Source of the DNA: an uncultured delta proteobacterium
Lineage (GTDB): Bacteria; Myxococcota_A; Polyangia; Fen-1088
Assembly: GCA_963796685.1 (NCBI GenBank)
Contig: CAWCMR010000022.1
Coordinates: 32,001 to 96,000, forward strand
Direction: 5' to 3'
Length of the DNA: 64,000 nt
Shown here: one piece after another, positions 25,066-47,956 of the stretch
Position numbering within the stretch: position 1 is the stretch's first letter
Layout of the letters: each line of letters opens with the position of its first letter
Made by a program: the position numbers and the translations under genes
The notes under the pieces: generated by a model
The model's input: the letters and a program-made list of their open reading frames with translations, nothing else
Databases searched by the model: none
What the model was told of the DNA's origin: nothing

Positions 25066-28000
25066 AGGCATTCGGCGCGAAGGCATTCGAATGGATGGCC
25101 GGGCGCCGAGGCCTCGTGTGGTGCACCGCCTTGGCCGTCGCGCTCGGCGGCGTCCTGGTGGCGAGGCGCCTGCCGAGCGGCATCTATCCCGAGGTCGAGT
25201 TCCCGCGCATCGTGGTCGTGGCCCGGGCCGGCGACGCGCCTCCCGACGTCACCCAGGTCTCGGTGACCCGCCCGCTCGAGGCGGCGCTGGCCACCGTGCT
25301 CGGCGTGGAGCGCATCCGCTCCAAGACCATTCGCGGCTCGACCGAGATGTCGCTGCAGTTCGCGCCCGGCACCGACATGTGGCGCGCGCTTCAGCTCGTC
25401 GAGTCCCGCGTGGGAGAAGCCCGCTCGGGGCTTCCCCCGGGGGCCGAGATCACCGTCGAGCGCTTGACCACCACTTCCTTCCCGGTGCTCACCTACAACC
25501 TCACGGGGCCCATCGATTCGCGCCGGCTGCGCGAGCTCGGCGAATTCGTTCTCAAGCCGGCCTTTTCACGGGTACGTGGCGTCGGCCGCGTGGAGGTCCT
25601 CGGGGGCGACGTGCGGGAGGTCGAGGTGATTCTCGATCCCGAGCGCACCGCCGGTTTGCACATCAGCCCGGCGCAAGTCGCCGAAAAGCTGCGCGCGCAG
25701 AACGTGCTCCAGGCCGTCGGCCGCCTGGAGCAATCGCACTCGCTCGTCACCGTGATGGCCTCGGGCGAGCCGACCGGGCTCGACGACCTGCGCGCCATCC
25801 CGGTGGCCGTGGGACCCGACGGAAGCCCCATTCTCCTCGGCGCCATCGCCGAGGTGCGCGAGGGCGCGGAGGACCGGCTGCTGCGGGTCTCCGGGCCGGG
25901 GGGCGAGACGGCGCTCCTCAGCGTGGCCCGGCTGCCGGGCGCGAGCACCCCCGAGGTCGTGGCCAACGTCAAAGCCGCGGCTCGCGCAACCGCCGCCGCG
26001 CTGCCCAAGGGAGTCGCGCTCACGCCGGTCTACGATCAGGCCGAGCTGGTCGACGAGTCCATTCGCTCCGTGCGCGACGCCATCTTGATCGGCATCGCCC
26101 TGTGCGTGGGCGTGATCGCGCTCTTCCTGCGCGACTTCCGGGCCGGGCTGGCGGCCTCGCTGTCCGTGCCCCTGACCTTGGCGGCCACCTTCCTTCCCAT
26201 CGGGGGCCTCGGTCAGAGCCTGAACCTGATGTCGCTCGGCGGCTTGGCGGTGGCCATCGGGCTGGTCATCGACGACGCCATCGTGGTGGTGGAGTCCATC
26301 GGCCGGCACGTCGAGGAGGGGCTTGCTCCCGCGGTGGCCGCGCGCGACGGGACGCGCGTGTTGCTGGCCGCCCTCGTGGGCACCACGGCAACGACCGTCG
26401 TGGTGTTCTTCCCGCTCGCCTGGCTCGAAGGCGTGGTTGGCCGCTTCTTCTCCGCCCTGGCGGCCACGCTGTCGACGGCGGTGCTCATCTCGCTGGTCAT
26501 GGCGCTGACCGTGGTGCCGCTCGCCGCCGCACGCTGGATCCGACCACGGCCGGCGTCCAGCCATTCGGCGCGCTTGGCGAACGCGTATGAACGCGCGCTA
26601 GGCCCCTTCCTGCACCGGCCCTGGATCGGGCTGCTCGTCGCCTTTGGCCTGCTCGGGCTGGGGGCGATGGCGGCGGTCGAAGCCCCGTCGGGATTCCTGC
26701 CGACCATGGACGAGGGCGCCTTCGTGCTCGACTATTTCTTGCCGGCCGGGACGTCGCTTGGCGAGACCGATGCGGTGGCGCGCAAGATCGAGACCATTCT
26801 CGCGGCGACCCCCGAGGTGCGAACCTATTCTCGACGGACCGGGGCCGAGCTTGGCCCGGTCGCCGCGACGCAGGTCAACCGTGGCGACATCATGGTCCGC
26901 TTGAAGCCGCGTGCGCAGCGCCACCGTTCCGCCGACGAGGTGATCGCGGAGGTGCGCGCGAAGGTCGTCCGGGACGTGCCGGAGGCGCGCACCGAGTACA
27001 TTCAGGTGCTGCAGGACGTGCTCAACGACCTGGCGGGAACCCCACGGCCCATCGAGATCAAGATCTTCGGCGACGACTACGCGACCTTGCGGGCCAAGGC
27101 GCAAGAGGTGGTGGAACGCATCCACGACGTGCCGGGATTGGTGGACCTGTACCCGGGATTCGAAGGCCGTGCCCCGGAGCTGCGCTTTCGCATCGACGGC
27201 GCGGCGGCGGCGCGCGCGGGAGCAACCGCCGCCGACGTGGCAGGCAACCTCGATGCCTCGCTCCATGGCGTCGTCGCGTCGATTCTTGCGCAGGCCGGAT
27301 CGCCCCATCGGGGTGCGCGTGCGCTATCCGGACTCGGTTCGCTTCGACCCCGAGCGCGTGGTCGAGCTGCCTCTTCTCGTCGGCGCGGAGGGCGTCACCC
27401 GCATCTCGGCGGTGGCCACGCCCATCCACGCCAGCGCCGAGACTTCGCTCCTCCGCGAGAGCCTGCGTCCGGTCGTCATCCTGAGCGCCGACCACGAGAA
27501 CCGCGATCTCGGCTCCGTCGTGCGCGACGTGCAGAAGCGACTGCGCGGGCTCGTTTTGCCCGAGGGCTATGGCCTCGAGCTCGGCGGCCAGTACGAGGGG
27601 CAGCAAGCGACCCTTCGGGATCTTTCCGCAGTGATGGGATTCGGTCTCCTGGCCGTGTTTATCGTCCTCCTTGCGCAGTTCCGCCGCGCGCGCCTGGCGT
27701 TCGTGGTGCTCGTCTCGGTTCCGCTGGCGGTGGTGGGGGCGCTGGTGACCCTTTGGGTTCTGCAGATACCGCTCAACGCCTCCTCGCTCATGGGGTGCGT
27801 CTTGCTCGTGGGCTTGGTGGTGAAGAACGGCATCCTGCTGCTCGAACAGTTCGAGCGCCTGCTCGACGAGAACGGGCAGGACGTCGAACGGGCGCTCGTC
27901 CTTGCCGGGCGCATCCGCGTCCGCCCCATCTTGATGACCACGTTGGCCACCATCGCCGGGCTCGCCCCGCTGGCGCTTGGCCTGGGGGCGGGCGCGGAGA

Positions 28001-28140
28001 TTCAGCGCCCGCTGGCCGTGGCCGTGATCGGCGGCCTCGTCGTGTCCACCGCCGTGAGCCTGCTGGTCCTGCCGTCACTCGTGCGCCTCACGCACGCCCG
28101 GCTGCAGGACAGTGGTCGTGCTCGCGGCCTCGAAGCGTAG
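25062..28140 (+). CDS. RND efflux permease, CusA/CzcA-like (apparent +1 frameshift at ~27283)
   Basis: GLVIDDAIVVVE, VKNGILL, RVRPILMTT, RPLAVAVIGG; ~1025 aa when joined. Confidence 0.92.
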
Positions 28141-28246
28141 CGGACTCTGCGGTTCATTTACACCTCGTCGCTCGAAAACCACAAAGAGGACATATCCCAC
28201 ACGCCCAACCGATGCCCGATGCTCCCCATACCCAGGCGATGCTTCC

Positions 28247-30351
28247 CTACGCACTGGCAGAAGTCGCGGCCGCCTCCCCTGTCGAGCCTGTCGAGCCCGC
28301 GCCAGGCGAAGAGTTTTTGCGCACGGCAAGGAGTGCGCGCATCGCCCACGCCAGCGCCAGGAACCATGACGACATCGTGAGCACGAGCCCCACCAGGAAC
28401 ACGGTCGGGAGATAACGGGTCGCGATGACATGGTGCCCTGCCTCGACCATCAGCGCACGCAGGCCCCCAGCGGCTTCGAACATGTAGCCGGCCGAAATGC
28501 CATCGATGCGCGCCCGCCAACCCGGGAAATACACCTCGTTGAAGACCAACATCGTGCGAACCGGGAGGTCCACGACGTACTCCACCCGGTCGGGAAGGTA
28601 GCGCGATATCGTGAACGTAACCGCAATGGCTTTCTTCTGAAACAGACTTCCATCCGCCGGAGGCGGTGCCTGCGCGAAGCCCACGATGCGTTGCCCGCTG
28701 ACGAGGAATGGCCGAAATCCTTTCGTCAGCAACCCGTCCAGCCGCTTCAGACGAAAGGGAGTATACGAGGGTAGATAGAACTTCTTGTTCAAGTACGCAT
28801 CGTTGGAACCGGGGTCGTCGATTTTTTGGGCATCCATGCGCGGAACCAGGGCCTTCGAGGGGTCGAAGTCGGAAACGTGAATGCTCATGCAGCGCAGGAC
28901 GTCGTCCTCGGGGGCCACGGCGAAGAGGCTTGCGTCCGAGCTGGCGTGCGTGCCGGAATCAAACGCGGCAATCAGCACAAGAGAGATGGCAGCGGCTCGG
29001 GGCCGCAGGAAGCGAACGACGGCAATCAGCGCAATCACCAGGACCATCAACTCCAGGTAGGTGGTGCCAAGAAAATAGTAGTCGAGGCTGGACGTAGGCG
29101 GGTAGATCACGTTCTTCAGCCAAAGGATCCCGACGAGCATCAATAGTGCCAGGCCAGCAAGAATGCCAATCAGCCGGCGCCGGGCCTCGGGCTCTTCGCG
29201 CAGATGGGCCAGACCGCCGCCGGCCAGCAGCCCTCCTGCCAGCGCCACCACGGCCCGGCTATCGGCGGCTGGAAAGCGGGATAGATTGAGCTTCGAGAAG
29301 AGGTCGTGCAGCGCCACGCGCGGGAAGGAGTACCGGCCAAGGCTCATCAGCAACGCGGCGAGAAAGCCAATGCCCAGTGCGGTGGTCGTGCGACAACGGC
29401 GGAAGAGGACCGCGTACAACACGAGGGCGAAAGCCACGATACCGAAGTACAACCCGCGCATCGAGATGTCGGTGACGAACCCATCGGAGGCCAGCCTGGT
29501 CGATGCACCGAAGACCAGGTGCCACAGATCCGGGGGCGAGAGGCTCTGGACCAAGGCCTCATCCGTGGTCATCGGCGAGCCACGCGTGAATGCGCCCGTG
29601 TTGGTCGCGATGGGTAGCCAGTGGCCGGCCGAAATCCCAGCGCCAAGCAGGAGACTGAGGCAAAGGCCCTTCGCAAAATGCTTGCGGCTTGACGGATCCC
29701 TGCACTGGCTGACGAACAGCCAGACCGACCAGCCGACGAACCATATCGGGCTGGTCAGGACAATGCCTGGGTAACCGCAAACCACCAGCAGCCCCAACGT
29801 GGCCCCGAGCAGAGGACAGGCCCATGGTTCGCCGTCGGCAAGCTTCTTGATGCTCAAGAGGACCCACGGGAAAACCGAGAAGGCATTGATGATATCCATG
29901 TGCTGGGCATTGCACAGTCGGGCACTCGTGAAATTGAAGGCAATCGCGGCCATGAGCGCCGCGGAGCGACGGGCCCATAGGCCATGGGCCAGAAAGTAGA
30001 CGCCGACCGAACCGAACAGGATCATCAGGAGCTCTGGCGCTGTGCCACCAGCGGGTCGTAGCCCCAAAGCAGGGAGACAATCCAGGTGACCGGCGACCAC
30101 AACTGAGACTGTGGATTGACGAGAAAGGGAGCTCCGGCGTGTCCGTAGGGAAACCAAAGCGGCAGGGCACCCGCCCGCAGGCTGTCGGAGATGAAGATCA
30201 GAAAGCGAGCGTACGAGTTGAAGAAATCGTAGGGGATTGCTACGGTCGGGATTCCGTTGGTGCCACGCATCCCGCGCTCCATCACGGCGATGTGCCAGAC
30301 GGAAAGCGCGGCGAGCGGGCCGAGGTGCCTGATGAGAGGGAGGCGAACCAT
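28247..30351 (-). CDS. YfhO-like polytopic membrane protein (GT-C glycosyltransferase-like), frameshift at ~30035
   Basis: GALPLWFPYGHAGAPFL, many TMs, SRFP, C-terminal EVYFPGWRARIDG..LRALMVEAGHHVI; ~700 aa when joined; start uncertain. Confidence 0.75.
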
Positions 30352-34997: not shown

Positions 34998-36065
34998 ATG
35001 TCCACCCTTCGTGCCACGCTCGAACAGGCTGCGGCCGGGTTGGTCCTGGCCACGGGGCAACGTCACACCATCATCATCCCCTCGAAGATCGTGCGTGTGC
35101 GCATGGTGGGGATGCTCTTCGACACCGACAAGACCTTCCTGCTCCCGTCCTCGATGGCCGGCATCCAACGTCTCAAGCAGCTCTACGACGAGCACCACCC
35201 CAAGACCGTCCTGGTGTCTGGGCACACCGACCGGGCCGGGTCCGCCGATCACAACCTGACCCTGTCGGTAGAGCGCGCGCAAGCGGTGGCGGCGTTTCTG
35301 CAAGACGACGTCGACGACTGGCTGCCGCGCTACCGGGCGGGCCAGCACAAGTCGCTGACTTGGGGCGTGCGCGAGGACCAGCTCATGCTGGCGTATCTGC
35401 GCGACGGGAGCGGCAAGCCGTACCTGGTCGGCGCGGTCAGTAGCAAGTCCGGCCCTGCCACGCGGGACGCCACCCACCGTTTTCAAGCCGACAACGGGCT
35501 CGCCCAAGCGGCCATGAACGACGACACCCGGCGCATCCTCATCCGGAAGTACATGGCGACGGACGGCACGACCCTGCCCGACGACGCCACGCTGGCCATC
35601 CACGGCTGCGGGGAATCGCACCCGTCGGTGCCCACCGCGGACAGCGTGGCCTTGGCCGAGAATCGTCGGGTCGAGATCTTCTTCTTCTCCGGACCGGCCA
35701 AGCCACCGCCGGTCGACCCTTGCCCGTCAGGGGGATGCGCCGAGTACCCGCAGTGGGTGGCGCGCTCGTCGCAGACCATCGACATCAATGCAGCGCCCGA
35801 GGTCGTCGTGTTCCTGGTCGACGAGCTGGGCCTGCCCCTGCGCAACGCCGCGGTCCGCCTGCTCTTGCCGGGCGGCGCCAAGGAAGAGGCCCAGACCGAC
35901 GAGCACGGCACGGTCCGACCCCGCGTCGCCCCCGGCACCGCGTTCGACGTCGTGGTCCTCGACGTGCACGAGGGCGGGGCGCAGGACTCCCTCACCACAC
36001 CCTCCGGGCACCACTTCGCCGCGGGTGGCGTCGCGCCGGCAACCGACTCGGGAGGTGGCGCGTGA
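34998..36065 (+). CDS. OmpA-like domain protein with inserted peptidoglycan-binding segment and C-terminal transthyretin-like module; no signal peptide
   Basis: FDTDK, GHTDRAG..NLTLSVERAQAV, GPATRDATHRFQADNGL, GCGESHP, ENRRVEIF; VFLVDELGLPL..TDEHG. Confidence 0.82.
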   Translation: MSTLRATLEQAAAGLVLATGQRHTIIIPSKIVRVRMVGMLFDTDKTFLLPSSMAGIQRLKQLYDEHHPKTVLVSGHTDRAGSADHNLTLSVERAQAVAAFLQDDVDDWLPRYRAGQHKSLTWGVREDQLMLAYLRDGSGKPYLVGAVSSKSGPATRDATHRFQADNGLAQAAMNDDTRRILIRKYMATDGTTLPDDATLAIHGCGESHPSVPTADSVALAENRRVEIFFFSGPAKPPPVDPCPSGGCAEYPQWVARSSQTIDINAAPEVVVFLVDELGLPLRNAAVRLLLPGGAKEEAQTDEHGTVRPRVAPGTAFDVVVLDVHEGGAQDSLTTPSGHHFAAGGVAPATDSGGGA

Positions 36066-37249
36066 CCCCGCGGGTGGCGTTCGTGCCGAGCACGCGCACG
36101 CAACCGCTGCGACTGCACGAGCTGGGCTTGACCCCGGAAGGGCACTGGGGGTTGATCGACGACGACGTGTGGCTGGGCGCCCAGGCCGCGCACGAGGTCG
36201 AGCTGCTCTATCTTTCCCACCCCGATTACCTGCACGCGGTCCGGCACCTCGATGCCGGCCAGATCGGCGAGGCCGTGCTGCGCCGGCGTCGGGTCTTCTC
36301 TGCTGCTCTGCCCAGCCAGGCCTTGGGCGAGGTCGCTCTGGCCGTGTCCCGCTGTATCTCGGCGATACCGGTCGGTGCATCGACCGGCGACGTCGTGCCG
36401 GATCTCCTGGCGGCCCTGGCCTCCTTCACCACCATGCCCCGCCTGGCCCACACCTCCCCCCTCGTGCTCATCGACTATCTGCGCGACGGCGAGGCCGAGG
36501 TCATCGCCCAGATCGAATCGCCGTCCATGTGCGCGGCCCAACCTGCCGGCGGCGGGCTCGATCCCGACGGCTCGGAGCGGGAGATCCGACGCCGATTCGC
36601 CACCGAGCTGGGCGCGATCGCGGCCGAGCGGGATCGCAGCGCCGACGTGCGTTTTCTTCCCTATGTCGATGTGTCGCGCACCTACTACGTCGAGCCCGCG
36701 AACCCCGAGGTGAAAAAGCGCGCCCACTTCCTGGGCGATCCGGTCCGAGACTGGGGCCAGGGCATGCTCTTGCCCCTGCCCGAGCGGGTGGCTGCCGACG
36801 TGAAGGTACTCGGGCATCGGCTGACCGTGGTGTTCCCGGCCGCCGGGCCCTTCCTGGGCGCCTTGCAGGAATGCACGGGGCCGCAGCTGGACGTGGAGCT
36901 GCACGAGCGCCTGAGCGCGCCCGGCCTCGCGGCCCATCTCGACCAGCAGCGACTGGAGCAGGCGGTCCTGCGCTCGGCGGCGCTGCTCGTGGCGGGTGCG
37001 GATGCGGAGCTTGGGCCAATTTTGCGCGCCCAGACCGAGCTGGAGGCGTCGGCCCTGCCAGGCTGGCTGACCCACGCTCAGGGTACGTTCTCGTCCTTGT
37101 CCGACCTGCCCCAGGAGCTGGCGGCCATCGTCGATACCGCCACCCTGCTGGCCGGGCTGTGCCGGCTCAAGGACAAGCCGGCCATCGCCGGCAAGGTCGA
37201 GGCGCTCGGCCGCGCGCTCTCGCACGTGGCCCGGGAAGCGAGGAGCTGA
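36062..37249 (+). CDS. Hypothetical protein (395 aa), paralog of 38445-39641
   Basis: GTGA overlap with upstream stop; GC3-biased frame; visible similarity to the 38445 protein. Confidence 0.72.
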   Translation: MTPRVAFVPSTRTQPLRLHELGLTPEGHWGLIDDDVWLGAQAAHEVELLYLSHPDYLHAVRHLDAGQIGEAVLRRRRVFSAALPSQALGEVALAVSRCISAIPVGASTGDVVPDLLAALASFTTMPRLAHTSPLVLIDYLRDGEAEVIAQIESPSMCAAQPAGGGLDPDGSEREIRRRFATELGAIAAERDRSADVRFLPYVDVSRTYYVEPANPEVKKRAHFLGDPVRDWGQGMLLPLPERVAADVKVLGHRLTVVFPAAGPFLGALQECTGPQLDVELHERLSAPGLAAHLDQQRLEQAVLRSAALLVAGADAELGPILRAQTELEASALPGWLTHAQGTFSSLSDLPQELAAIVDTATLLAGLCRLKDKPAIAGKVEALGRALSHVAREARS

Positions 37250-37254
37250 TCGAC

Positions 37255-38448
37255 ATGGCCGCCTTCTACCACCTGTGGCACCACCCTGATCTCGACGGCA
37301 GCGCCCCCTTCGCCACTGTCGATCTCGACATCCCGGCCATCCAGGGTGGCAAGACCGAATCCAAGTCGTTCCAAAGCCTGAAGAACGACATGGCCAAGCT
37401 GCGCGACGACGGCGTGGGCAAGGGCATCGTGGACGGCAGCATCGTCGACGTGGGCAAGAGCACCGAGAGCCGGGAGCTGTGGGCCCTCAAGGTGGGCAAG
37501 GGCGCAGACCACAAGATCCTGGTCACCGGCTGCCACCATGCCCGGGAATGGATCTCGGTCGAGGTGCCCTTCCTGGTGGCCAAGTTCCTCATCGACAACT
37601 ACGCGGACGCGCCCACGGACGAGAAGGGCAAGCGCATCAAGCACCTGCTCGACAATCGCGAGATCTGGTTCGTACCGCTGGTCAATCCCGACGGCCACTG
37701 GCACTCGGCGATGAAGCTGCGCCTGTGGCGGCCCAATCGCCGCAAGGTCACCTTCGATCACGACCAGACCCTGCGCGCGCCCAGATTCGGCGGGGGCACG
37801 CGGACCATCAACATCAAGGCCGGAACCTACCAGGGCATCGATCTGAATCGCAACTACCCGAGCAAGCACTGGGGCGAGGAGACCCAAGCCACCAGCCGGA
37901 ACCCGGCCGACGCGCAGTGGGGCATCTGGGCCGGCCCCTCGGCGGGCTCGGAGGTCGAGACCCAGCTCATGGTCTCCTTGATCAAGGATCAGAAGTTTCG
38001 CTCGGGCATCACCTACCACAACTTCAGCCAGCTTCTGCTCTATCCGCCCGCAGCCCGCAAGGACGCCTTCACCCAGTTCGTGGGCCAGGGCATGAGCAAG
38101 CTCATCGACGCCAACGGCAACCCCTACCGGTACATGTCCGGCGACGATCTGTATCCGACCACGGGCGATCTGATGGAATACATGTACGGCGTGCTGCCCG
38201 GCCGCCCGAATTTCACCCCCGAGCTGCGCCCCAAGGACGGTGCGCCCGACGAGCGCGCCTTCAGCGGCCTGCCCGAGGACGAGATCGAGCCGACCTTCAA
38301 GGAGAACCTGGGCGCGGCCATGGCCCTCATCAACTGCGCCGGGTTCGATGCCCCGGCCAAGGAGGTGACCATCCGGTGGTCGCCGGACACCACGGTTGGA
38401 CAGGTGGTACGCAACGGCTGGCGTGTCTTCGAGGGGCCGGCCCCATGA
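37255..38448 (+). CDS. M14 zinc carboxypeptidase (carboxypeptidase T-like), no signal peptide
   Basis: HHAREW, VNPDG, GIDLNRNY, GSEVET, TYHNFSQ, FTPELRP; RBS aggag. Confidence 0.9.
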   Translation: MAAFYHLWHHPDLDGSAPFATVDLDIPAIQGGKTESKSFQSLKNDMAKLRDDGVGKGIVDGSIVDVGKSTESRELWALKVGKGADHKILVTGCHHAREWISVEVPFLVAKFLIDNYADAPTDEKGKRIKHLLDNREIWFVPLVNPDGHWHSAMKLRLWRPNRRKVTFDHDQTLRAPRFGGGTRTINIKAGTYQGIDLNRNYPSKHWGEETQATSRNPADAQWGIWAGPSAGSEVETQLMVSLIKDQKFRSGITYHNFSQLLLYPPAARKDAFTQFVGQGMSKLIDANGNPYRYMSGDDLYPTTGDLMEYMYGVLPGRPNFTPELRPKDGAPDERAFSGLPEDEIEPTFKENLGAAMALINCAGFDAPAKEVTIRWSPDTTVGQVVRNGWRVFEGPAP

Positions 38449-39641
38449 GCGTGGGGAGCTGGATCATGGTGCTGGGAGCCATCGGGATGGGTCGCGCCGC
38501 TGCCACGCCGGGCGAGCGAATCGTGCTGTGCAAGGATCCAGCGGGCATCTGCCGGCAGGGCACCGTGCTGGGCAAGAGCACGCACGGGATCTGGGCCCAG
38601 GTCGCCGACGACGCCGTGCTGGCCGCGCATCCTGTGCCGAGGGTGCTGTACTTCTCCGTGCCCGAGTACCAAGACGCCATGTCCGGGCTGTCCGACAAGG
38701 AGCGCGCACAGGCCATCCTTCGCCGGGACGAGGTCGTCGCGGGCAACCTGTCCGGCTGCCTGTTCGCGCAGCTCACGCGGGACCTGAAGGACAGCGCGCC
38801 CGGCGCCACCCGCGCGGATCTCGACGCCCTGATCGAGGCCGCGGCCGTGCTCGACGGCGGCAGCGAGCGCCTGCGCGGCTCGGGTGCCGGAGAGCTCCTG
38901 GACATGGCCAGCGCGGATCTGGCCCAGCTCGTGGTCGAGCTGCCCAAGGGCCCCCTGGTCGAGGCCTTCGCCAAGCAGGCCGAGGCCGTGGGCCGCCTGG
39001 CCACCGGCCTACGCAAGGACGGCAGCCGCTCGCCATTGCCCTTCGCCGAGCCGAGAGCCGTGTTCTTCATCCCCTCGCTGCCCGAGAAGGAGCTCCTCGT
39101 GCTGCGCGCCCTCGCGGGCTATCCGCACGCGTGGCATGGTGGCGTGGTCGCCATCGTGGATCGACACCAGCTCGCGCAGGCCCCCTTCAAGGGGCGTGCG
39201 CTCGAGCAGCTCTACCCAGGGCCCGCCGACTATCTCGCGGATCTGACCGAGCTGACGGCCGCCCAATTGGATCGCCGTCTGGCGACCCGCCTCAGGTCGG
39301 GCTTCGACCGGAACGGCTTCGTGGCCGAGCTGGCCTTTCGCCACGCCATCCTCTGTCGCGCGCTGACCACCCTGGCGCAGAAGAGCCGCATGCCCTGGGC
39401 CACCGAGTGGCAGGCCATCGACGCGATGGACGTCGACAATCTGCAACGGGTCCTGGCCGCGACCCGGCCCACCGCCACCTCGGAGCGCGAGCCTCGGGTC
39501 GACCGTGCACGCGGCGATTTCGCCTTGGCCGCCGGGCTCCTGCGCGATGGCGATGCCAGGCACCGGGCCATGTTGGTCAAGGCCACCGACGCCCTGTCGA
39601 AGCTTGCCCTTGGCAAGGGCTGGCCAAGGACCGACCCATGA
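38445..39641 (+). CDS. Hypothetical protein (398 aa), paralog of 36062-37249, possible signal peptide
   Basis: ATGA overlaps at both ends; hydrophobic N-terminus ending RAAA. Confidence 0.75.
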   Translation: MSVGSWIMVLGAIGMGRAAATPGERIVLCKDPAGICRQGTVLGKSTHGIWAQVADDAVLAAHPVPRVLYFSVPEYQDAMSGLSDKERAQAILRRDEVVAGNLSGCLFAQLTRDLKDSAPGATRADLDALIEAAAVLDGGSERLRGSGAGELLDMASADLAQLVVELPKGPLVEAFAKQAEAVGRLATGLRKDGSRSPLPFAEPRAVFFIPSLPEKELLVLRALAGYPHAWHGGVVAIVDRHQLAQAPFKGRALEQLYPGPADYLADLTELTAAQLDRRLATRLRSGFDRNGFVAELAFRHAILCRALTTLAQKSRMPWATEWQAIDAMDVDNLQRVLAATRPTATSEREPRVDRARGDFALAAGLLRDGDARHRAMLVKATDALSKLALGKGWPRTDP

Positions 39642-42010
39642 CCAGCGCGGGCATGATGAGCTATCCCTCGCTGCGCGTGTCCTCATCACCAGGCGCGCAG
39701 ATCCTCCTGGTTCGCGCCACCGATGCGCTACGCCTGTGCCGGGAGGCGGGCTATCGGCTCCTGCCCGCCCATCGCACACTGCCGCTGCTCGGCACCCTCG
39801 ACCGCCGCGCACAAGGTGAGGTGAGAGCCTTCGTGGCCCATGTCTCGCGCACCCGACTGCGCCTGGAGGGTGCTCAGGATGCCCTGGTGCTGGCCTCGCT
39901 GCGCGAGCTGGTCCGAAGTCAGGACGTCGTCGCCATCTGCGAAGGTGACACCAGCCAGAGCCCCGACGGCGACGGGACCGCTGAGCAGCGCCGCCTGGTG
40001 CGCGCCATCGCGGCTCTGACCCGAGGCGGCCGGCTTGCATACCAAGGACGCGGGTATCGGTTGGTCGCCGCCCCTGACCTCGGGCGACTGCCTGACCGCG
40101 ACAGCTACGAGGTCGTTCGCCGCGCCGACGCCGAGCAGATCCTCACCGGTCTAGCCAATCACAGCACTGCCCCCTCGGCCCAGCTGGCCAGCCTACTCAC
40201 CCAGGCCAAAGGCATGCTGGCGCACGACTGGCGTCCGCCCATGGCGCCGGACGGGCTCGTCTTGTTCCGGCGTATCTCGACCGTCGCGGCCAGCAGCCCC
40301 AGCTCCGACCCCGCCATCACGCCGTCGCAGATGAAGAAGCTGGTCTCGGACTGGATCGAGATCGAGGTGGCCGACGAGGACGCCGTGCCTTACACCGGCA
40401 GCTACGCCCTGGACCTGCCCGATTCCAGCTCCATCGCCGGGACCTTCGACGACGACGGGTTCTACGGCAACCACGCCATCAGTACCGGGCAGTGCAAGCT
40501 GTTCCTGCCGGGCAAGCCGGAGGCCGCCGACGAATTCAAGGTGACGGTGGTCGACGAGACCGGTCAGCCGGTCGGGGGCGTGGCCCTCGTGTTCGGCGTC
40601 GGCGAGTCCAATTTCCCCGTCACCGCCGACGCCTCGGGCGTGGCCAAGCGCAAGGTGCCCAAGGCCAGCAGCGTGTCGGTCTCGTTCGCCGATGCGAGCG
40701 CCCTGGCCGCCACCATGAAGCCCCTCTGGGCCTCCCCGCGCAAGGTCGAGCGCAGCGCTTGGGTGCAGGAAGATGACGCCACCGCCACGGTGAGCCTGTG
40801 GGGCGGGCGCGTGGTGGAGGCGATCGCCGAAGACAGCGACGACAGCGACGACGGTCCCCTGCCCGAGGTCGAGGTCGAGCGCTTCGACGGCCTGCAGGTC
40901 GCGGCCGACAGACCGGGCATGTTGAGCGTCCAGCCGCTCGTGCTCATGGTCAGCCTGCTCGGCGAGCACTTCGACACCGACAAGTGTTTCCTTTTGCCCA
41001 AGGCGCTCGGCACCGTGCAGGACTTGGTGCAATTGCACCGGCAGTATCAGGACACCGACCTGCTCATCGTCGGTCACACCGACACCAGCGGGGCCGACGA
41101 CTACAACCTGGACCTGTCCCTCGAACGCACCTCCGCCATGCGGGCCTACCTCACCGACGACGCCGACGCCTGGCTCGCGTGGTACGACTTGGGCAAGCTG
41201 GCGAGCAAGCGCTGGGGCGAGACCGAGGACGCCTTGATGATCGGCGCCGTGGTGGACGGCAGCCCCTATCCCGCGTCCGTCCTCGGCTACCAGCAGTGGC
41301 ACAACGCACTGGCCGGCCGACAAGACGGCTACGAGGTCTTGGACGAGGACGGCGCCATCGGTCCGCACACGCGCAAGCAGCTCATCCTCGACTACATGCA
41401 CCGGGAGGACACCACGGTCCCGGCCGGCACCGCCATCGCGGTCCACGGCTGCGGCGAGCTCTTCCCGCTCGACGAATCGGGCACCGAGCTGGACCCGGCG
41501 GCGCAAGACGGGCAGGACCAACCGGAGGACCGGCGGGTCGAGGTGTTCCTGTTTCCAAAGGAGATCGGCATCGCACCGCCCGTGCCCGGCGACAAGGCCA
41601 GCCAGGGCGAAGAGGAATATCCCGAGTGGCGCCGGCGCGCCGTGGAGGCCGACCTGGCGTCCGACGTGCAGGCCGGCGACTGCGTGGTCTCGCTGGTCCT
41701 GGTCAGCAACTCGGGCAACGTGGTGCTGTCCAATCGGAAGTACGAATTGCGCATCGAAAACGGTCCGGTCTTGCAGGGCAAGACCGACGCCGACGGCTTC
41801 CTCGAGCACACCGGCCTTCCCGCGGGCGACCACACCCTGGTCGTGGATGGATGTGAATCCCGGGTCGGGGCAACCCCGCCGGACTGCACGCGCAGGCGCC
41901 ACATGATGGCGGGTTACGTGCTGATTGCGGGAGATGGCGGCGAAGACGGAGACGGCGAAGGCGGCGGAGACGGCGGGGGCGAAGGAGACGGCGAAGGAGA
42001 AGACATCTGA
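39638..42010 (+). CDS. Multidomain OmpA-like/peptidoglycan-binding protein (790 aa) with three transthyretin-like modules and acidic tail
   Basis: WIEIEVADED..GTFDDDG; VTVVDETGQPV..ADASG; FDTDK, GHTDTSG..NLDLSLER, DGAIGPHTR, GCGELFP, EDRRVEVF; GKTDADG. Confidence 0.82.
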   Translation: MTSAGMMSYPSLRVSSSPGAQILLVRATDALRLCREAGYRLLPAHRTLPLLGTLDRRAQGEVRAFVAHVSRTRLRLEGAQDALVLASLRELVRSQDVVAICEGDTSQSPDGDGTAEQRRLVRAIAALTRGGRLAYQGRGYRLVAAPDLGRLPDRDSYEVVRRADAEQILTGLANHSTAPSAQLASLLTQAKGMLAHDWRPPMAPDGLVLFRRISTVAASSPSSDPAITPSQMKKLVSDWIEIEVADEDAVPYTGSYALDLPDSSSIAGTFDDDGFYGNHAISTGQCKLFLPGKPEAADEFKVTVVDETGQPVGGVALVFGVGESNFPVTADASGVAKRKVPKASSVSVSFADASALAATMKPLWASPRKVERSAWVQEDDATATVSLWGGRVVEAIAEDSDDSDDGPLPEVEVERFDGLQVAADRPGMLSVQPLVLMVSLLGEHFDTDKCFLLPKALGTVQDLVQLHRQYQDTDLLIVGHTDTSGADDYNLDLSLERTSAMRAYLTDDADAWLAWYDLGKLASKRWGETEDALMIGAVVDGSPYPASVLGYQQWHNALAGRQDGYEVLDEDGAIGPHTRKQLILDYMHREDTTVPAGTAIAVHGCGELFPLDESGTELDPAAQDGQDQPEDRRVEVFLFPKEIGIAPPVPGDKASQGEEEYPEWRRRAVEADLASDVQAGDCVVSLVLVSNSGNVVLSNRKYELRIENGPVLQGKTDADGFLEHTGLPAGDHTLVVDGCESRVGATPPDCTRRRHMMAGYVLIAGDGGEDGDGEGGGDGGGEGDGEGEDI

Positions 42011-43963
42011 TGGGCAAGGGCAAGAAGAAGCCGCAGGCCAAGCCACTCGATTCGACCTTCGCCATCGGCGGCTCGAACATCCTCATCACGGGCGACGACA
42101 GCAAGCCCACGAACGATGTCCTGCAACTGGTCTACTCGGGCTCCGAGGCCGAGGTCGACAAGGTCACGGTCACCCTGGTCGAGATCGACGAGGACGAGGA
42201 CATCGACCCCAAGCCGCCCGGTCCGGACGCCACGGTCGCGCAGTTCTTCGGCAAGATCTCGGGCAAGAAATTCGTCACCGATTCGGAGAAGCTCGCCACC
42301 GACAAGCTGCCCGCCAGCGCGCCCTTCATCCAGCTCTCCATCGGCGGCAAGTCCTACCCCAAGATCAAGCTGCCCGGGGTGGATAGCGAGAACGGCCTGT
42401 TCGAGCTGGGCGTCGTGGTCACCGCGGGCAGCTCGAAGTACCGCAGCACCTGGCGCGCCTATGCGCGCCACTACACCATCCGTCCGGCCATCGGGCCCGT
42501 GATGGCCTTCGTGACCGGGGCCGAGGACAACACCTTCTTCACCGCAGCCGGCAAATACTGGAAACAGCACGCCGACGCCGTGCTCAGCAAAGACGGAATG
42601 AGCCTGGAGGAGATCGTCAAGTACCTGGTCAAGCATCGCGAGGGCTTCGGCGACTACGGCGAGGTCAACATCGTCAGCCACGGCAATCGGCTCTCGGCCT
42701 TGCTGCGCATCGTGACCGGCGGCGAGCGCGAGCTGCGCCTCAAGACCTTGTTCCGCACCCTCGGCATCGAGGGCGAGGAGTCCGACGATCCCGTCACCAA
42801 GGCGGCGCAGGCGGCGAACCTGGAGAAGTTCAATCACACCGCCGCCCAGCTGGGCCTCGGCGACAAGTCCCGCGTGGTCTTCCGCGCGTGCAACATCGGC
42901 CATCGCCCCGACGTCCTGCAGGCCGTGCGCGAGCACATCTTCGCCGACGCGTGCGCGGTCTTCGCGCCCAAGTTCCTGCAGGGCTACGGCGACGGGGATT
43001 CTCATCACCAAGAAGAAGGTCGACCCGTTCGAGTTCTTCGCCGAGGATCTGCAGCACCACGTGCCGGGCAAGGTCAACCCGCCGCGCGCGCCCAACAAGG
43101 TCCCCGACGGGACCAGCCAGGAGGAGATGATGGCGCCCATCTTCAAGACCGACCATCCCTCGCTCAAGCTCGACGACGAGAAGGCCTCCTACACTTCCAA
43201 GATCTCGTCCACCAAGCCCGGCGATGCAACCTTCGGCCTGACCGGCACCGAGGCGACCTTCTTCGACTTCCTGGCCAACGCCAGCAAGACCGACGCCCAG
43301 CTCGGCGCGGAGATGCAGACCGGATTCGATGCCCAGCGCTCGGAGGACATGGAGTTCACCCAGTGGAAGCAATGGGTCGCAGAGCCCATCACCCGCAAGG
43401 ACCAGACCCAGAAGGTCGACAACAAGGTCGAGGTCCTGACCACGGAGAACGTGTGGGTCACCGTGGCCAGCAGCAAGGCCGTCCCGCACCAGTCCTTCGC
43501 CTCGCCCGGCGGCGAGCTGGCCCTGGGCTCGGATCCAGCCCTGGGCACGGCCACCTCCTCGGACGAGCGGCCGGCCGGCATCACCTTGCCCGACAAGAGC
43601 GTGGCGGCCCTGCACGCGAAGATCACCACCTCGGGCTCGCCCGACGCGGCGGTCGACGCGGAGACCGGTCAGACCGTCACCTTCCAAGGCAAGGCCGCGG
43701 GGTCGTTCACCGGCACGGTCCCGGTGTCGTTCTCGGTCGGCCCGTTCGCGATCTCCATGCGGCCCGAGAAGCAGCGCCTGGCCACGGCGCAATTGACCCG
43801 GACCCTGGTGCATTGGCGCCGGCCCTTGCGCAAGGACGACCCCAAGGTGTCGTACGGAAAAGATCGCCCTTTGGTCGTTCCCGACGTGGACAACAAGGAC
43901 CATTATGGCTCGAGTGATGATCCCGCACCGTCGGACGCCGATCTGGCCAAGCTCTTCGAGTAG
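42010..43963 (+). CDS. Hypothetical protein with clan-CD (caspase/C80/DUF4347-like) His-Cys motifs (apparent +1 frameshift at ~42999)
   Basis: TGATG coupling; EVNIVSHGN and RVVFRACNIG; removing one T gives GDGDLITKKKVDPFEFFAED and a 650-aa ORF. Confidence 0.68.
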
Positions 43964-45775: not shown

Positions 45776-47956
45776 CTACTTGGCGAGCTTCATGATGGCG
45801 GCGCGGCTCATGTCCGACCAGTACAGGGCCGCGTCGTCCTGGTAGAGCTTTCCGCTCGCGCTTTGCCCGGTCGCCATGGTCTTCGTTCCGGTGCAGCCCG
45901 ACGAGGCTGGCGAGCAACGGTTCAGATTGCCGCTGGCATCGAACCAGTACAGATACGAAGCGTCCTCTGTCGCCATCACGCTGGTTGAAGCGACGGCGGT
46001 GATGAGCTGCAGGGACGGCGAAGAACCCACCGGCACGCGATACAGGATTCCGGCGGTCGTCGAGGGGTCCCAGAGCAGCACCGACGGCGCATTGACGTCG
46101 ACGATGACCATGGACGAGGTAAGTCCCGAGGACAGCAGCTCCGTCGCATACGAGGCATTGTAGCCGATGGAAAACAGGCTGGTGGATGACGGATCGGTCC
46201 GGAGATAGAAGACGGTATTCTGGTAGGCGCTGAACGCGCTGTAACTGACGCTCGAGTAGTCGCTGAGCGTGTCGTCATACGACGCCTTCACATCGCCACC
46301 CGTGGTGTACCACGTGATGTTCGCCGGGGCCGAGGTGGGATTGTAGAGAGGAACATACGCTGGCTGTGAGCTGCCCCATGAGGCGGCGAACGCCCCGCCG
46401 TTGATGGACCCGAGCTGCACCTTGGTGCCCGCGGTCATGTCGTAGAGGTAGTTGGCGTCCATATTCTCGGCGAAGATGAACACGTCGTTGCCCACCACCC
46501 CGCGAAACGCAGCATAGGCATAGTTCGGAACCACCTGGGTGCTCGCGCTGCCCGCGGCCTTGCCCACTCGAGCAGCCGACGCTTCCACGAAGCCGGATTG
46601 ATAGACGGAGTAGTAGAGGTTCTGGGCGTCGATCCCGAACAGGCCCTGAAAGGTGTCTCCGAGGTTCGCGGCCACCGCGACCGGCTGGCACAGACCGCTG
46701 CTGCACGTCCCGCCGAGGCAGTCGTGCCCACAGGCTCCGCAATTATGGCCATCGGAGGTCACGTCGAGGCACGAGCCGCTGCACTCTTTCTTGGGCGAGG
46801 CACAGGTGCACGCGCCGAGGCTACACAGGTAGCCGCCGGCGCAAGCGGTCTGGTTCGCCCACGCTCCGCTCGTGCCGCACTTTTGCGGCACACCACCGGC
46901 GCTGCATTGAACCTGGTTTGGCGTACACACGCCGGTGCATCCGCCCGCGCTGACGTCACAGGTGTACGTGCAAGCCTCCACGCTGGGCATCGAGCATGAG
47001 CCGGCCGTGCAGGTGCCCACGGCTTGGTAGCCGGAGCTCGTGCAAGCCGGCGTTCCGCAGGAAAGGGTGGGGTAGGTGCAGGATGGGCTGGTCCCATCGC
47101 AAGCCGCGGCGCAGATATCGCTGCCCGTGCAGGGCGTGTGCCCCGTGTGGGGCGATGCTTTGGCGGCCAAGGTCTTGCAGGTTCCCGTGGAGCCACCGAC
47201 ATCGCACGCCTCGCACGAGCCCGTGCACGCCTTGTCACAACACACGCCATCGGGTGAGCAGTAGAGGCCGGCGGCGCATCCTCCACCCACGACCTGGCAG
47301 GCCGTTCCCTGCTTCGACTTGCAGGCCCCCGTCGAGTCGCAGGTGCCGCTGCAACGGCCGGTGGGATCGTCCTGGCCGACCAGGGCAACGCACGTGTTGC
47401 TGGCGTTGCAGGTCTTGCAGCTTCCGGCGCAATCCGCGGCGGTACAACAGGCAGTCGAATCGATGCACTCGCCGTTGCAGCTCACCTTGCCCGACGGGCA
47501 TCCCGCCGCATCGAGCGTGGCGGCGTCCATCCGCGCTGGAGCGTCCATGGCAGCGTCGGGGTTGCCATCCGCCGGCGCGTCGGCGAGCTCGCTATCGGTG
47601 GCCGGCTCGATGCGCGCGTCCGGCGTCGCGTCCAGTCGTGCACCGGGAAGGCCATCGCCAGGGGCGTCGTTGTTCACTTCGGCGCTTCCGTCGTTGGTCC
47701 CGGCTCCCGCTTCGCTCCCACCCATGGGCGAGGCGTCGCTGCGGCTGCCACCAAACCCGCCGCTTGGGGAGCAGGTCCCGGACGAGGTGTCGCACACGTA
47801 GCCGCTCGGACAGCCGGTCTGCGTCTTGCACCTCAGGCGCGACGGATCGGCGGCGTCGAAACAGCCTAGAAAGCCCGGTAAAGCGAGCGCAACGATCCAG
47901 AACCCGATCGGAAAAGGTCGCCGATTCTCTCGTCCAAGGGCGCGTGTCGTCTTCAC
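45776..47956 (-). CDS. Myxobacterial Cys-rich lipoprotein with C-terminal beta-propeller-like domain
   Basis: Lipobox FLGC; DGVCCDKACTGSCEAC; DGHNCGACGHDC; DASYLYW and DDAALYW repeats. Confidence 0.8.
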   Translation of the reverse strand: MKTTRALGRENRRPFPIGFWIVALALPGFLGCFDAADPSRLRCKTQTGCPSGYVCDTSSGTCSPSGGFGGSRSDASPMGGSEAGAGTNDGSAEVNNDAPGDGLPGARLDATPDARIEPATDSELADAPADGNPDAAMDAPARMDAATLDAAGCPSGKVSCNGECIDSTACCTAADCAGSCKTCNASNTCVALVGQDDPTGRCSGTCDSTGACKSKQGTACQVVGGGCAAGLYCSPDGVCCDKACTGSCEACDVGGSTGTCKTLAAKASPHTGHTPCTGSDICAAACDGTSPSCTYPTLSCGTPACTSSGYQAVGTCTAGSCSMPSVEACTYTCDVSAGGCTGVCTPNQVQCSAGGVPQKCGTSGAWANQTACAGGYLCSLGACTCASPKKECSGSCLDVTSDGHNCGACGHDCLGGTCSSGLCQPVAVAANLGDTFQGLFGIDAQNLYYSVYQSGFVEASAARVGKAAGSASTQVVPNYAYAAFRGVVGNDVFIFAENMDANYLYDMTAGTKVQLGSINGGAFAASWGSSQPAYVPLYNPTSAPANITWYTTGGDVKASYDDTLSDYSSVSYSAFSAYQNTVFYLRTDPSSTSLFSIGYNASYATELLSSGLTSSMVIVDVNAPSVLLWDPSTTAGILYRVPVGSSPSLQLITAVASTSVMATEDASYLYWFDASGNLNRCSPASSGCTGTKTMATGQSASGKLYQDDAALYWSDMSRAAIMKLAK

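Follow-up and report, generated by a model that had tools for sequence, protein, structure and literature searches.

A previously unannotated family of paralogs flanking an M14 carboxypeptidase gene in a candidate T6SS cargo-effector module

Two genes, P1 and P2, that lie on either side of an M14 carboxypeptidase gene in the window (the whole stretch of DNA analysed, 64,000 nt) were found to encode paralogs in a previously unannotated protein family, for which no relative was found in Pfam, NCBIfam or the PDB. One interpretation of these data, which we regard as reasonably probable, is that P is a family of M14-binding proteins and that the surrounding cassette is a T6SS cargo-effector module, with P2 as a periplasmic immunity protein and P1 as a cytoplasmic inhibitor, chaperone or adaptor.

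P1 and P2 are paralogs in an unannotated family

The P1 gene (36062..37249, forward strand) encodes a leaderless protein of 395 amino acids, and the P2 gene (38445..39641, forward strand) a protein of 398 amino acids in which an N-terminal signal peptide is followed by ERIVLC-x6-C. Both open reading frames were recovered as given in the initial annotation, as was the restriction of a signal-like N terminus to P2 of the two. GC3 was 0.87 and 0.89, respectively, and codon-position GC was typical of the genes of this genome. The gene between them does encode an M14 peptidase (Pfam Peptidase_M14, E = 1.2e-46), and the suspected translational coupling was evident at both junctions, where the P1 start overlaps the stop codon of the upstream OmpA-like gene (GTGA) and the P2 start overlaps that of the M14 gene (ATGA). 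The paralogy of P1 and P2, originally proposed from short motifs aligned by eye, was confirmed by BLASTP (E = 7e-9, 25% identity over 268 amino acids), with those motifs inside the alignment, and by a shuffle test, in which the Smith-Waterman score of 139 compared with 41.4 +/- 6.1 for shuffled sequences (n = 500, z = 15.9) and was reached by none of the 500 shuffles. A single profile built from the P1 and P2 ortholog groups together retrieved both genes from the genome and no other gene there.

Neither protein matched Pfam, NCBIfam or PADLOC, in agreement with the earlier statement that no family could be recognised. The family profile retrieved 190 clusters (50% identity) among 1.84 billion representatives. 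Comparison of 84 family members with Pfam gave nothing real, the single match being to TetR_C_31 (E = 0.0072), and a family profile search of PDB sequences returned nothing below E = 0.03. Members of the family are large two-repeat proteins of about 400 amino acids, in which R75 is the sole residue invariant across the 84 sequences and no catalytic-looking motif was seen. Between G000 and G035/G057, identity was 48/38% for P1 and 43/30% for P2, compared with 73/64% for M14 and 72/69% for the carrier encoded upstream of P1, and on this measure P evolves much faster than the neighbouring M14 and carrier.

Foldseek searches of the PDB with the whole P1 model and with its N-terminal domain gave no match at E <= 0.001. 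A ferritin-like four-helix bundle was rejected for the helical core, where VIA-align Z values of 8-10.5 were under the stated noise of ~ 13 for helical bundles, and a ferritin-like di-iron protein was rejected on the lack of conserved E or H columns among the 84 sequences, where only R75 is conserved. For the N-terminal domain of P1, the best VIA-align match was to LapB (Z 5.3), and procarboxypeptidase pro-segments scored at noise level (Z 3.2-3.5). These model-based fold matches were treated as probable common arrangements and not as homology. Leads from the ESM Atlas, to glycosyltransferases and giant-virus hypothetical proteins, were sub-threshold (0.89) and were dropped; PADLOC matches to ZorB were due to the generic OmpA/MotB domain of the carriers and not to P1 or P2; and an apparent 566-amino-acid hydrogenase fusion (P0037) was set aside as a probable frameshift in the gene call.

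Adjacency to one M14 subfamily and the genes of the cassette

Related loci were collected from genome and metagenome contigs using the better-conserved M14 sequence as the query; a P1 ortholog alignment returned no loci from the genome contigs, and another alignment returned none from the metagenome contigs. Eleven genome loci, labelled Polyangia/Myxococcales, Bryobacterales, Pyrinomonadaceae, Trueperaceae and Fibrobacteria, carried a full-length M14 ortholog of at least 38% identity, and in all 11 a P-profile match ended just 5' of the M14 start. P was also directly 5' of the close M14 ortholog at 16 of 18 assessable metagenome loci. The 128 loci with a distant M14 gene (69 + 59) gave one weak full-length match and three matches to the N-domain only, then none. 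Near-obligate adjacency links P to a single subfamily of M14 carboxypeptidases. In several phyla the core order runs from a carrier with a transthyretin-like C-terminal domain through a leaderless P to M14, which is often followed by a second P. The cassette was present in four of the 89 genomes of the taxonomic family and in none of a sample of 400 other genomes from the phylum. The genes flanking it differ between loci, some loci lie beside transposases/IS elements or other mobile elements, and some cassettes are decayed.

The carrier gene (34998..36065, forward strand) encodes a leaderless protein of 355 amino acids. Its OmpA-like peptidoglycan-binding domain contains a PG_binding_1-like insert, and residues ~ 262-347 form a transthyretin/Ig-like domain at the C terminus; the Pfam matches were to OmpA (E = 1e-9) and, weakly, to PG_binding_1 and Big_1. 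The carrier orthologs in G035 and G057 likewise have no signal peptide. This C-terminal domain shares 40% identity (E = 1e-15) with a CarboxypepD_reg-like protein of 112 amino acids, which stands alone and precedes the P gene at an Acidobacteriota locus, and a transthyretin-like domain ends directly 5' of the P gene at 10 of the 11 genome loci. The initial annotation had suggested that the paralogs were immunity proteins or chaperones/adaptors, each for a cargo encoded upstream, and this general reading fits the data, but the OmpA-like protein did not hold up as the cargo partnered by P1. The pairing that is conserved joins the leaderless P1 to the downstream M14 and to the C-terminal transthyretin-like domain of the protein encoded upstream, and not to the OmpA-like part as such.

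The M14 zinc carboxypeptidase (37255..38448, forward strand) is a leaderless protein of 397 amino acids with a subfamily-specific N-terminal extension of ~ 60 residues. Its HxxE and NRN motifs, H255, Y300 and E323 are invariant in nine orthologs, and its closest solved relatives are carboxypeptidases T and A. The enzyme is 51% identical to an Acidobacteriota ortholog; such conservation across phyla is unusual for a weapon, and it counts against that role.

P2 is followed by a gene for a second OmpA-like protein (39638..42010, forward strand; 790 amino acids; Pfam OmpA and CarboxypepD_reg), which overlaps P2 (ATGA) and the C-terminal half of which is a paralog of the carrier (BLASTP E = 2e-44, 34% identity). 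A similar gene follows M14 at L018 and L073, but this second OmpA-like gene is accessory, being not conserved in most related loci. It overlaps in turn (TGATG) with a coupled downstream gene (42010..43963, forward strand), which encodes a leaderless product with no Pfam match and is frameshifted within a G-run near 42990. No counterpart of this gene was found at any of four loci (L008-L010 and L013), nor of either of its halves among the matches listed for the 80 genome loci L014-L093, and its membership of the cassette is uncertain.

The predicted P1-M14 complex and the split between leaderless and exported copies

Co-folding of P1 with M14 gave ipSAE values of 0.86, 0.87 and 0.87, compared with 0.00 for the best of three controls, and the runs shared at least 84% of their contacts, with a partner pLDDT of at least 87. 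Of 157 solved complexes 116 reach the score mark used, as do two of 215 mismatched pairs, although these counts apply only roughly to our own alignments. In the model, P1 lies across the rim of the M14 catalytic cleft. The M14 side of the interface includes residues 153-157, 188-193, 257, 299-300 and 329-336, which border the conserved motifs for catalysis and substrate binding and map putatively onto classic carboxypeptidase A positions. The N-terminal domain of P1 (residues 1-80) makes no contact with M14 in the co-fold and the invariant R75 lies outside the predicted interface, two points that count against the proposed reading; the interface core, LP[YF]x[DE] (P1 residues 195-203) with R127 and L128 (P1 numbering), is conserved in both the P1 and the P2 clades. 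No solved complex similar by sequence was found in the PDB sequences. P1 is thus predicted to bind M14, and the pairing of P with M14 across phyla together with the co-fold scores argues for M14 as its partner. If the proposed reading is correct, the model supplies a confident predicted enzyme-inhibitor interface that is open to direct test.

Proteinaceous inhibitors and pro-domains of M14 enzymes include latexin, the potato, leech and tick inhibitors, and the activation segments of procarboxypeptidases. The contact predicted for P1 resembles theirs in covering the rim of the active-site funnel. P1 differs from them in that no sequence similarity was found and that its N-terminal domain, for which the fold match was at noise, lies outside the predicted interface.

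The downstream copies of P, judged from their sequences, carry an export signal without exception, at 14 loci that include some near-duplicate contigs (the window, L014, L015, L022, L094-L098, L102, L103, L105, L110 and the G011 remnant). These signals are either Sec or twin-arginine with a lipobox. The upstream copies, with the exception of two Fibrobacterota loci, have no leader and begin directly at strand 1. P2 has a cysteine pair right after its signal and directly adjoins M14 through the ATGA overlap, a placement that fits an effector-immunity pair. In the decayed cassettes of G011 and L102/L103 the exported copy is intact, whereas both P1 and a functional M14 have been lost. An immunity role for P2 is supported by the export signals on all downstream copies, by the cysteine pair just after the signal and by the survival of the exported copy in these two decayed cassettes. 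About half of the loci have the leaderless copy alone. The peptidoglycan-binding domains of the carriers suggest that the putative effector acts in the periplasm, and if it does, the leaderless-only loci have no visible periplasmic immunity; it could therefore be that the target is cytoplasmic, or that the leaderless copy is itself an immunity protein.

T6SS links and alternative functions

Five related loci carry PAAR, VgrG, DUF2169 or FHA-DUF4123 genes. At L019 the OmpA-like/transthyretin-like carrier is fused to PAAR; at L073 the order is VgrG, DUF2169, P-like, M14 and then PAAR-OmpA-calpain; at L104 VgrG abuts M14; at L105 an FHA protein and a weak GPD-like protein are encoded 5' of the cassette; and at L013 an FHA-DUF4123 gene lies close by. 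No secretion-system or T6SS gene was found in the 64,000-nt window, and no T6SS gene was found within the DNA fetched around most of the related loci. TssC was detected in eight of the nine cassette genomes tested, with no match in G490, and is encoded elsewhere in G000; since it is also present in 54 of the 89 genomes of the taxonomic family, its occurrence in four out of four of that family's cassette genomes is not informative. A DUF4123 search gave no match in four related genomes, but as it gave none in control genomes either, it carries no weight. Literature searches found no paper linking M14 enzymes to the T6SS, so there is no precedent on which to lean.

The cassette resembles T6SS peptidoglycan effector-immunity pairs, such as the Tae/Tai amidases and Tlde1/Tldi1, which has L,D-carboxypeptidase activity, in that a leaderless, putatively wall-acting hydrolase adjoins a fast-evolving signal-bearing partner, the exported partner persists as an orphan after effector decay, and relatives are linked to vgrG/PAAR genes. 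It differs from Tae/Tai and Tlde1/Tldi1 in its enzyme, an M14 zinc carboxypeptidase, a fold for which no report as a T6SS effector was found, and in its partner, which is a two-repeat protein of ~ 400 amino acids from an unannotated family where theirs are small; in addition, a leaderless paralog of the immunity-like gene is found here 5' of the effector. Like the DUF4123 (Tap/Tec), DUF1795 (Eag) and DUF2169 adaptors, P1 is leaderless, encoded directly 5' of the cargo and 3' of a carrier or spike-associated gene, and predicted to bind the cargo. However, no Pfam match to these three adaptor families was found in P1, P2 or the 84 members, P1 has an exported paralog, and its predicted contact is with the catalytic cleft and not with an N-terminal loading region alone. 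The transthyretin-like C-terminal domains of VgrG proteins are reported to recruit cargo effectors and mediate their delivery, as for EAEC VgrG1-Tle1 and P. aeruginosa VgrG2a/b (PMC7376260). The likeness lies in a CarboxypepD_reg/transthyretin-like domain directly 5' of the cargo genes, which in relatives is PAAR-fused or follows a GPD-like protein; the difference is that the domain here ends an OmpA-like peptidoglycan-binding protein, or stands alone (112 amino acids), and is not on VgrG.

On the reading of the cassette as a T6SS cargo-effector module, it would be a small and patchily distributed unit comprising a carrier that ends in a transthyretin-like domain (here fused to the OmpA-like part), P1, M14 and P2. 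The leaderless M14 would be the toxic cargo, cutting the peptide stems of peptidoglycan. P1 would lie across the M14 catalytic cleft in the producer cytoplasm, where it would hold the enzyme inactive, present it to the carrier for loading, or both. P2 would be exported to the periplasm and neutralise M14 arriving from sister cells, which would make it the immunity protein. More tentatively, the fold may have been duplicated for both sides of the weapon, the leaderless P plugging M14 and using the N-terminal domain that it has free to bridge the enzyme to the transthyretin-like domain of a carrier linked to PAAR or VgrG, as both safety catch and loading adaptor, and the exported P providing periplasmic immunity.

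It could be instead that both copies are just immunity proteins, P1 in the cytoplasm and P2 in the periplasm, against an M14 whose toxicity extends to either compartment, as it would if the enzyme trimmed cytoplasmic peptidoglycan precursors as well as mature stems, and that P1 has no loading or adaptor role. The predicted position of P1 over the cleft rim, the retention of the leaderless copy at single-copy loci and the separate DUF2169 adaptor gene upstream at L073, by which an adaptor is already supplied, are consistent with this. We nevertheless consider it unlikely, as P1 was lost along with the effector in both decayed cassettes that retained P2, which is unexpected if P1 guards against incoming enzyme, and as P1 is encoded between the transthyretin-like domain gene and M14, the usual place of an adaptor, with its N-terminal domain free in the model.

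A housekeeping or stress-related peptidoglycan-trimming complex that does not involve the T6SS, with a regulated M14 carboxypeptidase acting on stem peptides, OmpA-like proteins as wall anchors and P1 and P2 as regulatory subunits, would account for the high conservation of M14, for the recurrence of OmpA-like or PG_binding_1 peptidoglycan-binding domains in the carriers, and for the lack of T6SS genes in the window and at most loci and of a TssC match in G490. Such a complex is improbable given that export signals are missing from both M14 and the carriers, that the distribution is very patchy (4/89 family genomes, 0/400 others sampled from the phylum) with varying flanking genes, that some cassettes are decayed or beside mobile elements, and that relatives have a PAAR-carrier fusion and an adjacent VgrG. 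The patchy distribution and the transposases/IS elements adjoining some loci would also suit an anti-phage or abortive-infection module that sets a restrained carboxypeptidase free on infection, and an enzyme with a partner predicted to bind it tightly resembles a toxin-antitoxin arrangement; yet PADLOC gave no match save to the generic OmpA/MotB domain, no recurrent defence genes lie nearby, and the second-copy export signals and the PAAR/VgrG links are left unexplained, making this function very improbable.

If the T6SS cargo-effector reading is correct, the data would define an unannotated family of 190 clusters and, in M14, a candidate new class of interbacterial effector, with paralogs of one protein guarding the producer cytoplasm and the periplasm separately. 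The order of transthyretin-like domain, P and M14, with or without an exported P, would then provide a genomic search rule for uncultured soil and sediment bacteria. Should the more tentative arrangement of safety catch, loading adaptor and immunity protein also be true, adaptor and immunity functions would be evolutionarily interchangeable, and M14 carboxypeptidases would be a new class of wall-targeting T6SS effectors across Myxococcota, Acidobacteriota, Fibrobacterota and others.

The coupled gene run and its two paralogs

The window has a high GC content, and codon-position GC marked a run of plus-strand genes from ~ 35.0 to 44.0 kb. This run comprises an OmpA-like gene whose product ends in a transthyretin-like domain (the carrier; 34998-36065), P1 (36062-37249, 395 aa), an M14 zinc carboxypeptidase gene (37255-38448), P2 (38445-39641, 398 aa), a second OmpA-like gene encoding 790 aa (39638-42010) and a further coupled gene (42010-43963). 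The junctions read, in order, GTGA, TGA-5 nt-ATG, ATGA, ATGA and TGATG and, since they overlap or nearly abut, the genes of the cassette are tightly coupled. The initial annotation had placed P1 and P2 at these positions around the M14 gene and claimed translational coupling, and on both points it was borne out.

The 42010-43963 gene switches frame near 42990 inside a run of G bases, and its two halves together read as a leaderless protein of ~ 650 aa without a known family. An AcrB-type RND efflux pump gene (plus strand), preceded by outer-membrane factor and HlyD-type genes, is split over two frames near 27000 (25062-28415 and 27169-28140), and its Pfam ACR_tran match is divided accordingly, positions 8-754 lying in one frame and 753-1019 in the other, owing either to a frameshift or to an indel in the assembly. 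The sheath gene TssC of the same genome is in three pieces in different frames (contig C15:58933-59784), which, taken with the window's own two frameshifts, suggests assembly indel errors rather than true pseudogenes. On the minus strand, 45776-48112 encodes a large, cysteine-rich, secreted-looking protein with a weak NCBIfam match to an MXAN_6577-like cysteine-rich family (E = 8.5e-5), which agrees with a myxobacterial origin.

P1 and P2 were 25% identical over 268 aa (BLASTP, E = 7e-9), and their Smith-Waterman score of 139 stood 15.9 standard deviations out over 500 shuffles, none of which reached it (0/500). The two had been described beforehand as diverged paralogs of no recognised family, with a signal-like N terminus on the second only, and each part of that description held: P2 has such an N terminus and P1 is without one, and neither protein matched Pfam, NCBIfam or PADLOC. 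The window's genome contains exactly these two copies.

Word-indexed searches returned eight relatives of P1 (47-72% identity) and five of P2 (49-62%), all 13 being metagenomic and either named 'hypothetical' or unnamed. At E-value limits of 0.001, 1e-10 and 1e-30, a family profile built from 15 sequences matched 190, 145 and 59 clusters, respectively, among 1.84 billion representatives, and almost all of these were 370-450 aa in length. Ten of these matches, looked up by identity, were clusters of one to three members (seven had one); every one came from a metagenome or MAG, and no informative name was attached to any. No real Pfam match was present in any of 84 full-length members, and the profile matched no sequence of a solved structure. 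In the 84-sequence alignment, R75 is the sole invariant residue and six more columns, the majority hydrophobic (L, Y, A, Q), reach 90% conservation or more; with so few conserved positions the family does not look like an enzyme.

Association with an M14 subfamily

The family was found in four of the 89 genomes of the window's taxonomic family, three of them with both copies 2.4 kb apart, and a sample of 400 further genomes from the phylum gave no match. The related genomes G035 and G057 share the window's gene order (carrier, P1, M14, P2) but not its flanking genes. A MAG labelled Pyrinomonadaceae has a distant member that shares ~ 20% identity with P1 and is likewise followed immediately by an M14 gene, whose product shares 51% identity with the window enzyme (E = 4e-145). 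The product of the small gene preceding this member shares 40% identity (E = 1e-15) with the CarboxypepD_reg/transthyretin-like domain at the C terminus of the window carrier.

M14 was taken as the probe for a neighbourhood survey of 80 genome-contig and 80 metagenome-contig loci because it is far better conserved than the P family. On genome contigs, a P gene ended immediately before M14 in all 11 loci with a full-length M14 ortholog of at least 38% identity, and a transthyretin-like domain ended immediately before the P gene in 10 of these; the other 69 loci gave one weak full-length match (L073) and three ~ 95-aa ORFs matching the N-terminal domain only. On metagenome contigs, close M14 orthologs were present in 21 of 80 loci, three of them without upstream sequence to assess, and P lay upstream in 16 of the other 18. 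The two exceptions are near-identical contigs (L102 and L103) with a 5'-truncated M14. No P match was present in the 59 metagenome loci with a distant M14. The survey ties P to this M14 subfamily. Since the N-terminal part of the carrier varies (OmpA-like, PG_binding_1, a segment of ~ 100 aa without a known family, or absent), the conserved core is the transthyretin-like domain, then P, then M14.

The three ~ 95-aa ORFs (L045:6621-6908, L083:6578-6865 and L072:495-782), from MAGs labelled Chloroflexi, Multivoradales and Gemmatimonadota, stand alone and are each followed immediately by one of the more distant M14 genes. They share a similar C-terminal tail (RFRVA, KFGIA or RFGVA), which could be a substrate-like C terminus for a carboxypeptidase. 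In Acidobacteriota-type cassettes a conserved ~ 250-aa protein of no known family precedes a stand-alone transthyretin-like gene (L013:5256-6020, L016:4668-5429, L017:4458-5447 and L107:3949-5064), and a second paralog of it is on the opposite strand in L021.

Predicted fold of P1 and its complex with M14

The AlphaFold2 model of P1 was confident (pLDDT 87, pTM 0.87). It opens with a small alpha/beta domain (the N-terminal domain, residues 1-80), then has a helical core, another alpha/beta unit (about 200-260) and additional helices. In several members the N-terminal-domain profile also matched the second region (~ 200-280 against ~ 1-80; window 36660-36900 and 36062-36300, plus strand), with independent E-values down to 6e-4, and because the one profile finds both units, P is probably an ancient internal duplication of an alpha/beta-plus-helix unit. 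Foldseek found nothing with the P1 model. A ferritin-like bundle was considered and rejected, as VIA-align Z scores of up to 10.5 stay under what the tool gives as noise among helical proteins, and the protein lacks the metal ligands. Modelled alone, the N-terminal domain reached a pLDDT of 93; it had no significant structural neighbour (best Z 5.3), and protease pro-domains scored a Z of only ~ 3 against it.

Co-folding of P1 with M14, using alignments of 84 and 9 sequences, respectively, gave ipSAE values of 0.86, 0.87 and 0.87, while all three controls, in which either the partner (two) or M14 (one) was exchanged, gave 0.00. At least 84% of contacts agreed between runs, and partner pLDDT was at least 87. 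Of 157 solved complexes 116 reach the mark applied, as against 2 of 215 mismatched pairs; both figures are rough here because our own alignments were used. No similar complex has been solved, judged by sequence, and the score is therefore unlikely to reflect mere reproduction of a known structure.

The M14 side of the predicted interface comprises a subfamily-specific N-terminal extension (residues 10-12 and 23-37) and segments 153-157, 164-166, 188-193, 211-224, 257, 299-300 and 329-336, which flank the invariant R156, N198/R199, H255, Y300 and E323. We take these residues to be R127, N144/R145, H196, Y248 and E270 of carboxypeptidase A, which presumably line the active-site funnel. The tightest predicted contacts of P1 are at residues 198-203 (LPYVD). 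The LP[YF]x[DE] motif, R127 and L128 of P1 are conserved in the P1 and P2 clades alike, and P2 probably binds M14 in the same way. The N-terminal domain of P1 and the invariant R75 are outside the predicted interface.

Export, cassette decay and a possible link to type VI secretion

All downstream copies, located after M14, carry an export signal (14 listed, judged from sequence, with fewer independent cases because several contigs are near-duplicates). The signal is Sec-type in the window, L014, L015, L094-L098, L102, L103 and L105. In L022 (8233-9546; a MAG labelled Bryobacterales) there is instead a twin-arginine motif (RRRFLGQ) followed by a lipobox (LPGC), which would be a different export route to the same compartment. 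L110 has a divergent signal-bearing copy missed by the profile, and the copy in a cassette remnant in genome G011 also bears a signal. A cysteine pair (C-x6-7-C) follows the signal in nearly all exported copies, which fits a periplasmic disulfide; the L105 copy is an exception, with a single cysteine in the N-terminal stretch examined. In upstream copies no leader precedes the first beta strand, and a stop codon or another gene lies immediately ahead; the Fibrobacterota loci L020 and L073 differ, the single copy in each having a hydrophobic N terminus.

In the G011 remnant (L010, contig C287, 7308-9157, minus strand), carrier residues 1-115 run straight into M14 residues 304-394 through a deletion that has taken out P1 and left the exported copy whole. 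Neighbours of the remnant are a Uma2-type nuclease gene and a Y2 transposase fragment. L102 and L103 likewise have an intact exported copy but no P1; the first 85 residues of their M14 are missing, and an IS110 transposase is nearby. An exported partner kept after enzyme loss is what one expects of an immunity gene. That P1 went when the enzyme did suggests a role for P1 in enzyme-producing cells only. Identity of the window's genome to G035 and G057 is 72 and 69% for the carrier, 73 and 64% for M14, 48 and 38% for P1 and 43 and 30% for P2; fast divergence of P beside a conserved enzyme would fit binding proteins under weak or diversifying constraint.

The M14 enzyme and the carriers are without a signal peptide, and the carriers nonetheless bear peptidoglycan-binding domains. 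Related loci contain genes of type VI secretion (T6SS). The L019 carrier is a single protein of PAAR, OmpA-like and transthyretin-like domains, preceded immediately by a gene for a GH25 lysozyme. L073 reads VgrG, DUF2169, P-like, M14 and then PAAR-OmpA-EF-hand-calpain, and in L104 a full VgrG abuts M14. L105 has an FHA protein and a weak GPD-like protein, then the transthyretin-like domain, P, M14 and an exported P, and L013 has an FHA-DUF4123 gene at a distance of 3 kb, on the far side of a transposase. Transthyretin-like domains of VgrG are reported as required for the delivery of cargo lipases (PMC7376260). Search listings and the opening lines of abstracts contained no report of an M14 enzyme as a T6SS effector; the nearest there were L,D-carboxypeptidase effectors, whose fold differs from M14.

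Within the window's taxonomic family all four genomes with the cassette have TssC, as do four of five such genomes from elsewhere, and since 54 of the 89 genomes of that family have it, its presence is compatible evidence only. The one cassette genome with no TssC match at all is that of L018, which is labelled Trueperaceae, the locus having 39% GC, unexpected for that group. No T6SS gene lies within the window, so the cassette here, if T6SS-type, would be an orphan module.

Apart from its gene content, signals and adjacency, all readings of the cassette are inference or modelling. The initial annotation's proposal of immunity proteins or chaperones/adaptors was right in kind but has to be corrected on one point, the cognate partner of the family being the M14 enzyme. 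The main rival explanations are that both copies serve immunity only and that the cassette is a housekeeping complex for trimming the wall. On balance we lean towards a T6SS-type cargo cassette in which M14 would be the effector, the exported P2 would confer immunity to it, and the leaderless P1 would act on the producer side as its inhibitor, chaperone or adaptor.
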